Below are positions 5,742 to 47,602 of a stretch of DNA of 64,000 nt, in pieces (the stretch's first letter is position 1; each line of letters starts with the position of its first letter). Origin of the DNA: Candidatus Vogelbacteria bacterium (lineage in GTDB: Bacteria; Patescibacteriota; Minisyncoccia; Phycocordibacterales; XYD1-FULL-46-19); contig CAIRHC010000007.1 of assembly GCA_903878275.1 (NCBI GenBank), positions 8,727 through 72,726 on the forward strand, read 5' to 3'. The notes beneath the pieces are model-generated. The model ran no database searches. It had not been told where the DNA came from and saw only the letters and a program-made list of their open reading frames with translations. The translations under genes and the position numbers were made by a program.

Positions 5742-5917
5742 CAAAAAACAAAAGAGCTGGAAATTTCCAGTTCTTTGTTTTTTGTCTCGAGATTCGAACC
5801 AGAGGTGGGGTCGGGAGGACTGGGTGTCCTCCCGTGGAGGAAATTATTCAAAACCGAGGGGTTTGAAAGCGCAATTCGCTTTAGCGAATGAGCAGTGAGT
5901 GTTCTCGGCACCCCGAC
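5742..5917. repeat. tRNA 3' trailer element
   Basis: Hairpin, CGAGATTCGAAC (inverted T-arm), core shared with 1521 and 6756 copies, direct copy TCTCGGCACCCCGAC. Confidence 0.85.
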
Positions 5918-5978
5918 AAAATTTTTATATTCTCAACTTGTGTATTGACAAAGTAATTACATTGTCTATACTAGAATT

Positions 5979-6227
5979 ATGTCTACTTTAAGTATTAGGA
6001 TTGAAGATAAAACCAAAGCTGAAGCAAGTAAAACTCTGGCTCGTCTTGGGCTTGATATGTCTAGCGCGATCAAACTTTTTCTTTATCAGGTAGTAAAGGA
6101 AGACGGTCTGCCTTTTACTCCGACCAATAATCTGGCGATAATTAAAGCTCGCTTCGATACTCAAGTGCTTGAAGCCAAGAAAAACCGTGGTTTCAAGACG
6201 GCAAAAGAGGCGCTTGATGATTTATAA
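5979..6227 (+). CDS. dinJ: RelB/DinJ family antitoxin
   Basis: LSIRIEDKTKAEA..LGLDMSSAIKLFL..GLPF; promoter TTGACA-16-TATACT with internal palindrome. Confidence 0.88.
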   Translation: MSTLSIRIEDKTKAEASKTLARLGLDMSSAIKLFLYQVVKEDGLPFTPTNNLAIIKARFDTQVLEAKKNRGFKTAKEALDDL

Positions 6228-6230
6228 AAT

Positions 6231-6515
6231 ATGTACATTATCAAGCGGACTAAAGATTTTGAAAGGTCTTTTAAAAAACTTAAGCAGGCGGGACTTTCAA
6301 AAAATAAAAGAAATATCTTAGAATCTGTAATTGATATAATAGCTTTGGGTCAAAAACCGAGCGAGAAATATAAAGACCATCAATTAAAAGGGGAATTGAG
6401 GTTTTTTCGTGAATGTCATATTTTTAATGATCTTTTGGTGATTTACAAAATCGAAAAAGACGAGTTGATCCTAGTTTTGGTTGACATTGGTAGTCATGCT
6501 CAATTATTTGGATAA
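6231..6515 (+). CDS. yafQ: YafQ family mRNA interferase toxin
   Basis: KYKDHQLKG..RECHIFNDLLVIY..LVDIGSHAQLF. Confidence 0.9.
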   Translation: MYIIKRTKDFERSFKKLKQAGLSKNKRNILESVIDIIALGQKPSEKYKDHQLKGELRFFRECHIFNDLLVIYKIEKDELILVLVDIGSHAQLFG

Positions 6516-6563
6516 AACAGACGCATTTTGAATTAAGGTATTTTAAGTGGTAGGATAAAATAT

Positions 6564-6755
6564 CGGAGTGTAGTGTAACGGTAACATCCACGACACGCCC
6601 GCCTACCTTTTTATCGGGGCATAGTGTAACGGTAACATTTACGATTCGGGTTCGTAAGACTCAGGGTTCGAATCCCTGTGCCCCGACAAGAGAAGTGAGA
6701 AAAGGTGGGCAGGTGAAGGTTCGTGGGACTCAGGGTTCGAATCCCGGCACTCCGA
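6564..6755 (+). other. tRNA-Pro-like gene whose anticodon loop is replaced by an insertion holding a second tRNA
   Basis: CGGAGTG/CACTCCG acceptor + A73, D arm TAGTGTAACGGTAACAT, anticodon stem CCACGA/TCGTGG separated by ~125 nt, T arm CAGGGTTCGAATCCCGG. Confidence 0.85.
6615..6686 (+). tRNA. tRNA-Pro(CGG), nested
   Basis: CGGGGCA/TGCCCCG acceptor, TACGA-TTCGGGT-TCGTA, CAGGG-TTCGAAT-CCCTG. Confidence 0.92.
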
Positions 6756-6903
6756 CAAAACTGAAAAGTTTTTCGGAGTGCAGGGATTCGAACGGGAAGG
6801 GGTAGGGAAACGGGAGTTTCCCTTGGCGGAGTTATTCAAACCGAGGGGTTTGAAAGCGCAATTCGCTTTAGCGAATGAGCAGTGAGATTCCCGGCACTCC
6901 GAC
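6756..6903. repeat. tRNA 3' trailer element
   Basis: TCGGAGTGCAGGGATTCGAAC inverted copy; core CCGAGGGGTTTGAAAGCGCAATTCGCTTTAGCGAATGAGCAGTGAG identical to the 5742 copy; direct copy ATTCCCGGCACTCCGAC. Confidence 0.85.
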
Positions 6904-6936
6904 ACAACGAAAAATTAATAATTTAATTAAACAGTT

Positions 6937-7449
6937 ATGATCGAACAAAATTCAAGTGTGGAAAAAATTGAAAATGTGAGGAAATTTCTAATTAGGTCGA
7001 ATGAGGCTGGTTATGCTGGTGGGGAAGATAAGAAATGGATTAAGGAGGCGGATAGCTCGACCACGATCGCTTATGAAGATGGTGATTGGAAATTTAATGA
7101 TAACTTCTTCGGTGGTGAGCCGTATGGTGGGCGGGAAGTGATTTTTAAAGAGGGAAAGCCGGAATGGATGATGGTTTATTACGGTTTGATTAGCGATAAG
7201 GACTTGGATAAAAACAAGGTTTATGGTTTTTTGCGCTCGGCTCTGAAATTGGCGCCAGCCGAAATGCCTTTGCGTGGCCCAGATCTTTTTGTGCAGGAAA
7301 TTGATGGTCAAAAGTGGGTTTATGAAAATAAGGTTGGTGGCAAGATGGAAAATTTTTCTGGTAAAGAAACTATTAGTATCGATGGCCGGGAGATTTTTTA
7401 TACGGATTATTTCGGTGGCTTGGTGGATGTGGATAGGGAGGCTATTTAA
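6937..7449 (+). CDS. DUF5680-like protein
   Basis: GYAGG..DNFFGGEPYGGREV..WMMVYYG..PLRGP..FSGKE. Confidence 0.75.
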   Translation: MIEQNSSVEKIENVRKFLIRSNEAGYAGGEDKKWIKEADSSTTIAYEDGDWKFNDNFFGGEPYGGREVIFKEGKPEWMMVYYGLISDKDLDKNKVYGFLRSALKLAPAEMPLRGPDLFVQEIDGQKWVYENKVGGKMENFSGKETISIDGREIFYTDYFGGLVDVDREAI

Positions 7450-45230: not shown

Positions 45231-45521
45231 TTTACCCGGTTAAATAAGATTTGATACGACGCTTGATAAACATTCGACCGTGGTATGTTTTAAAATATTT
45301 TTCTCGGTGGGTAGCATCATCTCTATTTAAACATGATTCATAGTAGACAAGCAATAGGGGACGGCGATCTTTTGTAGATTCGACTAACCCTCGACAGTGT
45401 TTATCAAATCTTAATTTTAAATCTTTGGTGTAACCAGTGTAGAAATTGTGATCTTTTTGAGATAGTAAAATATAAGTATAAAACATTGATATTTAGATTT
45501 AAAATTATTTAACTGGGTAAA
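45231..45521 (-). mobile_element. Inverted-repeat-flanked GIY-YIG element, copy 1
   Basis: Termini TTTACCC(A/G)GTTAAATA / TATTTAAC(C/T)GGGTAAA. Confidence 0.7.
45232..45486 (-). CDS. GIY-YIG nuclease family protein
   Basis: YTYIL..FYTGYT.DL..R..H..STK..P..LVYYE..A..RE.Y.K. Confidence 0.9.
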   Translation of the reverse strand: MFYTYILLSQKDHNFYTGYTKDLKLRFDKHCRGLVESTKDRRPLLLVYYESCLNRDDATHREKYFKTYHGRMFIKRRIKSYLTG

Positions 45522-45557: not shown

Positions 45558-47327
45558 ATGTCAATAAAAAAATGGGCGTTAAAAAAGCCAATTAGTAAGA
45601 AAATTGCGGAAAATTTAAAAAATTACCCAGAATTAACGCAAAAATTACTCTTTTATCGGGGGATTAAAACAATTGAAGAAGCGGAAATTTATCTTAATCC
45701 AAATTTTGAGCGAGATGTGCTCGATCCATTTTTATTTGCCGATATGGACAAAGCGGTGGATCGTATTATCGAAGCGATTCATAAAAAAGAAAAAATAATT
45801 ATTTTTGGTGATTATGATGCAGATGGCGTGCCGGGGGCGGCGATTTTGGCATCGTTTTTTGAACGGATTGGGTATTCTGATTTTGATGTTTATATTCCCG
45901 ATCGTCACCTTGAAGCCTATGGTTTGAGCGAAAAAAGTGTCAAACAATTTATTGCGGATAAAATTGATTTGGTGATTACTGTCGATTGTGGGGTGACCAA
46001 TAACGAAGACATTGCTTTGGCGAAAGAAAATGGTTTGGATGTGATTGTGACTGATCACCATCTGACAGGCGAGACTTTGCCAGATGCTGTGGCGATTGTT
46101 GATGCGAAAAGAATCGATGACAAATATCCGTTTAAATCTTTGGCAGGTTCTGGCGTCGCTTTTAAGTTGGTCTGTGCGATTTTGACTCGAGATCGTTTTA
46201 ATGTGCCGGTCGGCTGGGAGAAGTGGCTTCTTGATTTGGTGGCGATTGCGACGGTGTCGGATATGGTGCCCTTGGTTGGCGAGAATCGCGTGCTGACTTA
46301 TTTTGGTCTGAAAGTGCTTCGACAGACGAGGCGACTTGGAATGATTGCTTTACTTCACGAATTGAAAATTAAACCAGAAAATGTAATGGAAGATGATATT
46401 GGTTTCATGATTGGACCGCGGCTAAATTCGGCGGGGCGAATGTCTCACGCCTCGCAAGCTTATTTTTTACTGCAAACAAAAGACGGTATTGAAGCGGTGA
46501 CGATCGCTAAGCATTTGGAAGAAAAAAATAAAGAGCGGAAAGATTCAGTGGATGTCATTTTGCGAGGAGCGGAAGAAAAATTGTTGGGTAAAAATTTGCC
46601 ACCGGTTATTGTGGTCGGGAGTGTCGATTGGAGCTTGGGAGTTTTAGGTTTGACCAGTAGTCGTTTGGTGGAAAAATATAATCGCCCAGTTTTTTTGTGG
46701 GGTAAAAATGGTAACGGCGAAATAAAAGGTTCTTGTCGGTCTGATGGTACGGTTAATTTGGTTGAATTGATGAAAGAAGCCGGCGGGGAAGATTATTTTA
46801 TAAATTTTGGTGGGCACATCATGGCGGGTGGTTTTTCGATTACCGAAGATAAAGTTGGTGAGTTGGCAGAGAGAATAAATAAGGCGTATGAAAAAATAGA
46901 GAAAAAAGACGTAGCCGTGTCTATCGAGGTTGATGAGCAATTAAGTTTGGACGAGGTGACCTGGGATAATTATTATCAAGTGGAAAAACTAGGACCATTT
47001 GGAATAGAAAATACGAAACCGGTTTTTTTGCTGGCGGGGGTTGATATTTTTTCAGCCAAAACTTTTGGTAATGGCGGAATTCATTTGGAATTGGCTTTTA
47101 AGAACAGTAAAGGCAAAGTCATTCCGGCAATTGGTTTTTTTGTTTGCCCGCCAAGTTTGGTTGGCGAAAATTTTGATGGTCAAAATGGGCATCATTTTCC
47201 CGAAGTTAATCTGACCGCTGGTCAGAAAGTAGATATTTTAGTGAATTTGGAAAAATCAACATTTAAGAATTTCCCCGAACTCCGGATGAGGATTGTCGAC
47301 ATTAAAAAAGTTCACCCAGTTAAATAA
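45558..47327 (+). CDS. recJ: ssDNA exonuclease RecJ
   Basis: GDYDADG, TVDCG, TDHH, GPRLNSAGR, GSCRS, GGH. Confidence 0.95.
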   Translation: MSIKKWALKKPISKKIAENLKNYPELTQKLLFYRGIKTIEEAEIYLNPNFERDVLDPFLFADMDKAVDRIIEAIHKKEKIIIFGDYDADGVPGAAILASFFERIGYSDFDVYIPDRHLEAYGLSEKSVKQFIADKIDLVITVDCGVTNNEDIALAKENGLDVIVTDHHLTGETLPDAVAIVDAKRIDDKYPFKSLAGSGVAFKLVCAILTRDRFNVPVGWEKWLLDLVAIATVSDMVPLVGENRVLTYFGLKVLRQTRRLGMIALLHELKIKPENVMEDDIGFMIGPRLNSAGRMSHASQAYFLLQTKDGIEAVTIAKHLEEKNKERKDSVDVILRGAEEKLLGKNLPPVIVVGSVDWSLGVLGLTSSRLVEKYNRPVFLWGKNGNGEIKGSCRSDGTVNLVELMKEAGGEDYFINFGGHIMAGGFSITEDKVGELAERINKAYEKIEKKDVAVSIEVDEQLSLDEVTWDNYYQVEKLGPFGIENTKPVFLLAGVDIFSAKTFGNGGIHLELAFKNSKGKVIPAIGFFVCPPSLVGENFDGQNGHHFPEVNLTAGQKVDILVNLEKSTFKNFPELRMRIVDIKKVHPVK

Positions 47328-47602
47328 TTTTAAATCTAAATGACAATGTTCTATACCTACGTTCTATTATCAAAGAAAGATAACCAATTCTATACTGGTT
47401 ACACCAAAGATTTAAAATTAAGATTTGATAAGCACAATAAAGGTTTAGTAGAATCCACAAAAAAATCTTCGTCCACTATTGCTTGTGTACTATGAGTCGT
47501 GCTTAAATAGAGATGATGCTACTCATCGTGAGAAGTATTTAAAGACATATCACGGTCGAATGTTTATCAAACGTCGTATCAAATCTTATTTAACCGGGTA
47601 AA
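47311..47602 (+). mobile_element. Inverted-repeat-flanked GIY-YIG element, copy 2; nuclease 47346-47601 frameshifted
   Basis: Closely similar to copy 1; one extra A in the A7 run at 47459-47465. Confidence 0.8.

Follow-up and report, generated by a model that had tools for sequence, protein, structure and literature searches.

How does a bacterial genome come to carry one intact tRNA gene inside the anticodon loop of another, and what has become of the outer gene? The locus that raises this question lies at positions 6564-6755 of the window, the 64,000-nt stretch of DNA analyzed here, within a 769-kb genome (G000) that is 100% complete in 11 contigs and has 47 tRNAs called by ARAGORN. A sequence-only reading of the window had described an intact tRNA-Pro(CGG) inside a second tRNA-Pro-like gene, and the sequence, ARAGORN and Rfam agree that an intact tRNA-Pro(CGG) is nested within the split halves of a second tRNA-Pro. 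The locus is likely a selfish, non-autonomous cassette with palindromic arms, which interrupts a tRNA gene and brings along its replacement, and for which we infer a mobiliser and a mechanism; at the nested locus there is probably neither an intron nor a split tRNA.

Anatomy of the nested locus and identity of its shell

All parts of the locus lie on the + strand. The outer gene, or shell, begins with a 5′ half (6564-6593) that runs through anticodon-stem position 31 and is identical at 30/30 positions to the plain Pro(CGG) genes of two relatives (G018 and G035) and to the shell of another (G032). This half is followed by a CACG left junction (6594-6597; family consensus CNYG), which junction comparison places at loop positions 32-35 of the intact gene, and by a left cassette arm (6598-6614) that begins CCC, includes the stem strand 6601-6611 and belongs by sequence and fold to the same arm family as stand-alone palindromes of G000. 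The inner tRNA-Pro(CGG) (6615-6686; called by ARAGORN, Rfam 62.5 bits) does not encode its CCA end and is the sole Pro(CGG) that ARAGORN calls in G000. A spacer and right arm (6687-6717) include the stem strand 6700-6710 and terminate in AGGTGAA, one decay change from the family consensus GGGTGAA, after which the shell resumes with a 3′ half (6718-6755) that extends from G36 to A73, contains an A50 × G64 T-stem mismatch and matches the plain gene of G018 at 37/38 positions. The insert between the shell halves measures 124 nt and the anticodon-stem strands are separated by 127 nt (6594-6720), in line with the roughly 125 nt originally described; the inner gene is flanked by 21-nt left and 31-nt right segments, 52 nt in total outside the inner tRNA. 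The arms form the 11-bp stem noted before (6601-6611 with 6700-6710), with one G-U pair.

Every shell feature reported earlier is present in the sequence, including a 7-pair acceptor with C1-G72 and A73, a 6-pair anticodon stem, a D arm identical to that of the inner gene and a T arm with one mismatch, A50 × G64 (window 6732/6746). Shell and inner gene differ at 11/68 positions, comprising among others five both-side changes (three acceptor pairs and two anticodon-stem pairs) and the T-arm mismatch. These differences bear out the claim that the locus is no simple tandem or assembly duplication, as do two Logan contigs identical to the window with 0 differences (X1 over 6445-6724 and X3 over 6443-6631). 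The contigs were assembled separately and therefore argue against misassembly; they come from two runs of one study, perhaps the source campaign, and are not independent biology. Spanning sequence of this kind bridges the left junction and exceeds the right one by 7 letters only. The predicted nested cloverleaf fold is unusually stable (z -3.75; 0/200 shuffles equally stable), with both acceptor stems pairing at p of at least 0.96 and cross-pairing absent from the prediction. ARAGORN run in intron mode left the outer gene uncalled, Rfam at E ≤ 1 returned only sub-threshold matches besides tRNA, and a promoter scan of the + strand found no consensus site.

Comparison with 109 distinct tRNA-Pro sequences identified the uninterrupted Pro(CGG) genes of G018 and G035 as the nearest matches of the shell, with 1 and 2 differences in 68 positions. 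The single difference from the G018 gene breaks a T-stem pair, and the downstream flank in G018 starts like that of the G000 locus. Because of this match to plain genes, because none of the possible single excisions (0/8) yields a 7-nt loop with U33, as the sequence-only reading had anticipated, and because no splicing enzymes were found in G000, sequence comparison identifies the shell as the resident Pro(CGG) gene, disrupted at 35/36, and the inner gene as another allele. The shell was also considered as the missing Pro(GGG) gene, a candidate that we rejected since both shell halves correspond to the plain Pro(CGG) of the relatives. The suspicion that Pro(GGG) is missing held as far as gene calls go: Pro(GGG) and Ile(GAT) are uncalled by ARAGORN in G000, which has called Pro(TGG), Pro(CGG), two Ile(TAT) and two Trp(CCA) genes. 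A Pro(GGG) anticodon arm was not found in G000, but a gene may have escaped assembly in this 11-contig genome. Of the Pro codons in its long ORFs, CCC is used least (961/7471). Plain and nested Pro(CGG) both occur within genus g19, a presence/absence polymorphism at an orthologous site; no pair of empty and filled sites was seen within one species. The shells of G000 and G032 are 67/68 identical while their arms agree at only 16/21 and 23/31 positions and RelB at 80%, and this shell constancy with drifted arms would fit either young independent insertions or selection on the shell.

Recurrence, junctions and repeated invasion

The same nesting is found in other genomes of the family and beyond, and the prospect raised earlier that the shell might prove unconserved is contradicted by a layout that recurs widely. 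For relatives, 61 genomes were searched at the DNA level and all 43 genomes of the family with a pattern. Matches occur in 7/43 family genomes including G000, at 11 sites in Pro-CGG, Pro-GGG, Arg-CCG and Ile-GAT genes: Pro(CGG) is nested in G032, G027, G024, G029 and G011 and has a 5′-only form in G015, Pro(GGG) and Arg(CCG) are nested in G011 and G024, and Ile(GAT) is nested in G018. Hairpin inserts or indels damage 3/6 family shells.

A GTDB-wide search for the pattern T loop, GGGTGAAG, T loop returned at least 124 matches. Among the matches listed, 88/124 combine a called inner tRNA with a right arm and a tRNA 3′ part; the remainder are 5 flagged as tandem (3 of them nested by eye) and 31 without an inner call (3 nested by eye, the others chance). 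The 88 cassettes among the matches listed represent 18 anticodons, split evenly between insertions at Pro anticodons and insertions that separate G18 from G19 in the D loop, and the titles of the matches listed, which are record labels only, name mostly Patescibacteria with several Bdellovibrionales, Gammaproteobacteria, Bacteroidetes and 'bacterium'. At D-loop sites among the matches listed, a script found the shell anticodon equal to the inner anticodon in 39/44 cases after 3 mis-sorted Pro rows were moved; the other five comprise two unreadable cases, two that are the same by eye and one that is mutated. The left-arm and site-sorting scripts mis-assigned some rows, a caveat carried by all junction and arm counts given here, and counts from different surveys overlap and are not additive.

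Since the right-end motif is imposed by the GTDB pattern, we ran a motif-free search at Pro tRNAs, which matched 30/401 class genomes with a 5′ stub visible by eye in about 25 of the 30 loci listed. Several further kinds of ends are found at these loci, among them a palindrome of the same type in opposite orientation, and this diversity of sequence suggests several cassette families, with more than a single family or mechanism at work. Loci L200, L207, L215, L218, L220, L221 and L224 carry nested Pro tRNAs whose arms end differently, in an opposite-strand palindrome, AAAATTCCC, CTTTT/AAAAG or no clear end motif. A phylum-wide sample held the motif pattern in 4/401 genomes, one of them a false positive, so that the nested feature is patchy. 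A metagenome scan gave 33 matches, with a Pro tRNA directly inside in 27 of the 29 distinct ones. Viral contigs yielded at least 120 loci, where 106 are two complete tandem tRNAs and 6 others inspected are not nested; 8 further loci had no first tRNA call.

Sequence alignment of insertion sites shows that cassette junctions are stereotyped. Among the matches listed, the left junction reads CTTG in 43/83 cassettes and mostly conforms to CNYG; it replaces a two-base YG in 18/21 well-aligned D-loop and 4/4 Pro(TGG) cases, and TTCG in 14/14 well-aligned Pro(CGG) cases. Most D-loop and UGG junctions lack 2 target bases, and at UGG and GGG anticodon sites the junction leaves extra bases. Readings of the junctions as products of a hairpin ribozyme, IS110 or IS200/605 were dropped, as comparison with their consensus features revealed no duplicated core and no ribozyme core.

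The metagenomic and genomic loci further contain shells at several depths and stages of decay. Locus L385 has an outermost shell like that of G000, with the same T-stem mismatch and a similar downstream flank, and in it the window's inner allele (30/30 and 36/38 identity) is itself split at the same site by a second cassette holding a third allele. No other sequence evidence speaks as strongly as this locus for shells having once been working genes and for a process that recurs: an inner gene of today can be the shell of tomorrow, the re-invasion of inner genes means that the carried tRNA copy is not immune, and the T-stem mismatch common to the L385 and G000 shells indicates that the shell lineage is not brand new. 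Multi-level nests also occur in L112, L137, L365, L392 and L394. We observed at least two shell levels with partial collapse in L392, L365, L394 and L112, and at least three levels in L392. One-sided forms lack the 5′ shell (L047 and L065) or the 3′ shell (G015). Among the matches listed, the T stem is perfect in 77/88 shells and the acceptor pairs 7/7 in 54/82; 13 T-stem pairs are broken in shells and 0 in inner genes, which ARAGORN had selected as intact, and 119 both-side changes separate shells from inner genes versus these 13 broken pairs.

Palindromic arms, a candidate mobiliser and competing explanations

The consensus cassette consists of a CNYG-CCC arm, a tRNA of the same anticodon and an arm ending in GGGTGAA. 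Stand-alone CCC...GGG-TRAA hairpins are also present in G000, two of which begin CTTG-CCC and end GGG-TGAA, and paired inverted arms recur through the genome in the manner of REP/REPIN elements. TRAA comes next in 22/294 GGG-closed hairpins of G000 versus a 2.7% background (p 2e-5, with sites not independent). Among the matches listed, arms pair with their own partner at 0.89 versus 0.50 when swapped, a contrast inflated by the choice of left arms through pairing.

Arms of the same kind bracket nuclease genes in the window. An intact 84-aa GIY-YIG gene (45232-45486 within the interval 45231-45521, − strand; Pfam PF01541, E 3e-14) lies within CCC...GGG-TRAA palindromic arms, and arm comparison identified a second, frameshifted GIY-YIG cassette with the same arms (47311-47602, + strand) between genes that we take from their motifs to be recJ-like and RNase H-like. 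This second cassette is absent at the same junction in G027 and G024, the only two of five relatives compared that have that gene order. The cassette insert at the nested locus contains no ORF and no nuclease gene, and the 45231-45521 GIY-YIG gene is a candidate mobiliser that would act in trans. L079 and L111 have a GIY-YIG ORF enclosed by the arms and preceding the inner tRNA-Gln, and in L129, L147 and L152, where the left end is out of view, such an ORF immediately precedes the inner tRNA; in-cassette nucleases were seen only at Gln (D-loop) cassettes. Among the matches listed, 9/87 survey loci have a GIY-YIG ORF anywhere in their flanks, and 0/33 metagenome Pro(CGG/GGG) loci have one within 700 nt. 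G000 also encodes 5 Y1/HUH transposase matches, one of which has a GGGTAAA-ended hairpin at a distance of 1.2-2 kb on each side, both hairpins having other stems. Elsewhere in G000, C6:27345-27762 contains a GIY-YIG gene, then a tRNA-Ala(GGC), then a second Ala(GGC) that is 5′-truncated and whose D loop holds a palindrome of 36 nt, and C7:102384-102730 contains a GIY-YIG gene between tmRNA and a gene that, from its motif, is presumably smpB-like.

These observations must be weighed against the view that the shell is kept for an RNA-level job, either as a tRNA-shaped scaffold or decoy or as a processing stalk that sets maturation of the inner tRNA. Such a role would suit the stable nested fold, the mostly well-paired shells (119 both-side changes against 13 broken T-stem pairs among the matches listed), a shell nearly constant between the two genera of G000 and G032 while the arms diverge, the pairing of arms with their own partners (inflated, and again among the matches listed), the presence of RNase III and RNase P and a RelB/YafQ pair just upstream. 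However, both-side changes are expected if shell and inner gene are two once-functional alleles, and we consider such a role unlikely given that shells of close relatives have hairpin inserts, indels or a lost half, that G018 and G035 carry plain alleles in a genus that also has nested ones, that inner genes are invaded again, and that many unrelated tRNAs are affected at two different loops. An assembly or library artefact is extremely unlikely: all sources are apparently short-read metagenome assemblies and L045 and L137 carry repeated identical units that are possibly assembler loops, but the junctions are unique sequence, inner and outer genes differ at 11 positions, the separately assembled Logan contigs match exactly, and nested loci with other arms are present in records that, judging by their contig names, come from different assemblers.

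Two further readings invoke introns. The cassette right end GGGTGAAG equals the P8′-J8/7 stretch of the phylum's group I introns, a pattern present in 27/251 genomes with one coding false positive, and the cassette could on this basis be a group I remnant in which the catalytic core was lost and P8 survives with a tRNA, sometimes also a nuclease gene, in its loop. In the Rfam-confirmed L172 intron the P8 stem is closely similar to the cassette arms, and introns of group I-like type occur in G000 itself, among them one in tRNA-Thr(GGT). We nevertheless judge a remnant very unlikely, as the cassette has no P7, P4-P6 or P9, the interval 6450-6950 has no RF00028 match at E ≤ 1, 0/30 intron loci carry a tRNA inside P8, two exact deletions would be needed again and again, at dozens of sites, and the same ends occur on stand-alone hairpins and in opposite orientation. 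With no catalytic core in the cassette, at most the arms share an origin with P8, and by sequence a common ancestry of arms and P8 is possible. The other reading, a protein-spliced intron or trans-spliced split tRNA giving a second mature tRNA such as the missing Pro-GGG, draws on the lack of a plain Pro(GGG) among the 47 tRNAs of this complete, 11-contig genome, on a helix with a 3-nt GAA bulge formed by the arm and the 3′ half, and on one relative, G011, where exact removal would restore the loop. It is extremely unlikely: EndA (PF01974) and RtcB (PF01139) were not found in G000 (controls positive in 4/14 and 10/14 genomes), none of the eight 7-nt excisions gives U33 or a GGG anticodon, the single 3-nt bulge has no second one to complete a bulge-helix-bulge, the shell is a Pro(CGG) allele, and relatives have separate Pro(GGG) genes, some nested likewise. 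What stands of the intron-like insertion first proposed is an insertion that carries a tRNA; neither its splicing nor the split tRNA proposed alongside it is supported, given the missing U33 loop and enzymes and the extra bases left by UGG and GGG junctions. As separate observations, the introns at L172:1289-1538 and in the G000 C8 23S rRNA are group I introns with P8 and J8/7 matching the cassette right end, and at G000 C7:147243-147508 a tRNA-Thr(GGT) is split by an insert of 192 nt that contains an S element of group I-like type, with no plain Thr(GGT) called. Group I introns in Patescibacteria tRNA genes are reportedly the subject of an earlier study.

Proposed mechanism, known systems and neighboring elements

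Under the preferred reading of a palindrome-armed selfish cassette, two palindromic arms (CCC...GGG-TGAA) around a complete tRNA gene would insert into the resident tRNA-Pro(CGG) gene at 35/36, a YG|G site, and so destroy that gene; a working copy with the same anticodon is supplied, so that insertion would be tolerated. A small GIY-YIG nuclease, in-cassette in some Gln cases and in trans here, would cut the tRNA gene, and break repair guided by tRNA homology would then copy the cassette in, accounting for the matching anticodons. The inner tRNA would be transcribed through the shell from the resident promoter; its release could proceed by RNase P together with a 3′ or stalk cut, possibly by RNase III. 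G000 has RNase P RNA, RNase III and a CCA/poly(A) polymerase family gene, and RNase Z was below cut-off there. The shell would finally decay or be lost by recombination between repeats, one tRNA allele thereby replacing another.

A broader proposal, which we offer tentatively and think more doubtful than the cassette itself, is a minimal mobile element in which the tRNA copy picks the target by homology and rescues the host, and a GIY-YIG protein of about 85 aa acting on palindromic arms drives serial horizontal replacement of tRNA alleles across Patescibacteria. If true, this would amount to a gene drive for tRNA genes without integrase, transposase or intron splicing. The nested genes represent a recurring third tRNA-gene architecture in bacteria besides uniform genes and self-splicing introns, one that tRNA finders miss because only the inner gene is called. 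They point to a route for tRNA-allele swaps in streamlined genomes and to a possible role for the many tiny GIY-YIG genes and palindromes of Patescibacteria, and offer a very small testable system of one short nuclease, two arms and one tRNA gene.

Several known systems share parts of this design. Integrase-type islands and prophages target tRNA genes and restore them with a partial copy, in the order gene, element, fragment and with an integrase. The cassette resembles them in that element-borne tRNA sequence makes insertion harmless; unlike them, it places a whole gene between two dead halves in an insert of about 100-130 nt, and in the window this insert has no ORF, no integrase gene and no direct att repeats restoring the target, which is left split. 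REP/REPIN elements are short inverted-arm hairpins, present in many copies per genome, non-autonomous and mobilised by RAYT (HUH Y1) transposases. Recurrent non-autonomous hairpin arms and the Y1 matches in G000 recall these elements, whereas a tRNA or GIY-YIG gene as cargo, targets inside tRNA genes and arms that bracket GIY-YIG genes set the cassette apart.

Available parts of published accounts describe three further points of comparison. T4 SegB is a free-standing GIY-YIG homing endonuclease between phage tRNA genes that recognises a conserved tRNA T-loop motif, spreads itself and neighboring tRNA genes by cleavage and repair, and leaves mostly 2-nt 3′ overhangs (PMC2330249). Like SegB, the cassette would tie a GIY-YIG nuclease to tRNA genes, and as a lead only, by analogy, the 2-nt overhangs would fit the two-base loss at cassette junctions; unlike SegB, the cassette is located within a tRNA gene, bears palindromic arms, contains a complete replacement gene and in most cases lacks an ORF. 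CPR rRNA genes contain non-intron GIY-YIG insertion sequences and many short uncharacterised inserts (PMC11270868, as available in part), which share with the cassettes the phylum and GIY-YIG ORFs in inserts that are neither group I nor group II introns. In contrast, the accessible parts of that account concern rRNA only and do not describe a replacement copy, and its main text contains 'tRNA' and 'palindrom' 0 times each. Intron-containing, split and permuted tRNAs mature either through EndA and a ligase acting at BHB motifs or, in the case of group I/II introns, through self-splicing, and split tRNAs likewise have two halves that pair through an extended anticodon helix (PMC4033280 and PMC3218864, in the parts available). 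Bacterial tRNA genes are there called uniform apart from group I/II introns (PMC4033280), and 'nested' has 0 occurrences in the available text of PMC4033280 or PMC3218864. No description of tRNA-in-tRNA cassettes was found in the accessible parts of the literature searched, which includes PMC4033280, PMC3218864, PMC11270868 and bioRxiv 10.64898/2026.10.13.758758 and has most subscription journals outside it; the nested architecture is real, recurrent and apparently unpublished. New here are the match of the shell to a plain orthologue, serial replacement in the same lineage, the junction rule and the motif-free count.

Other tRNA-linked elements surround the locus. Repeat search revealed a tRNA-associated repeat (6769-6905, strand not assigned) composed of an inverted tRNA 3′-end copy (6769-6793), a mosaic core and a direct 3′-end copy (from 6886), with a sister after Pro(TGG) that has 49 identical nt in common with it. 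Mosaic elements of this type lie downstream of tRNA genes at window 5743-5920 and 6769-6905 and after 1521 and 1782, each with an inverted tRNA 3′-end copy and often also a direct copy; the inverted copy at 6769-6793 has an intact T-stem base, and the direct copy at 6886 has the mismatch of the shell. A RelB/YafQ toxin-antitoxin pair (5979-6515) lies between Pro(TGG) and the nested gene, and RelB/YafQ also adjoins Pro tRNA genes in G032, G027 and G018. Between the 23S and 5S rRNA genes of G000 (C8:15031-15194, − strand) is a Lys-like tRNA with an 8-nt anticodon loop, beside a second tRNA-Trp with an unusual acceptor and pyrimidine-rich flanks.
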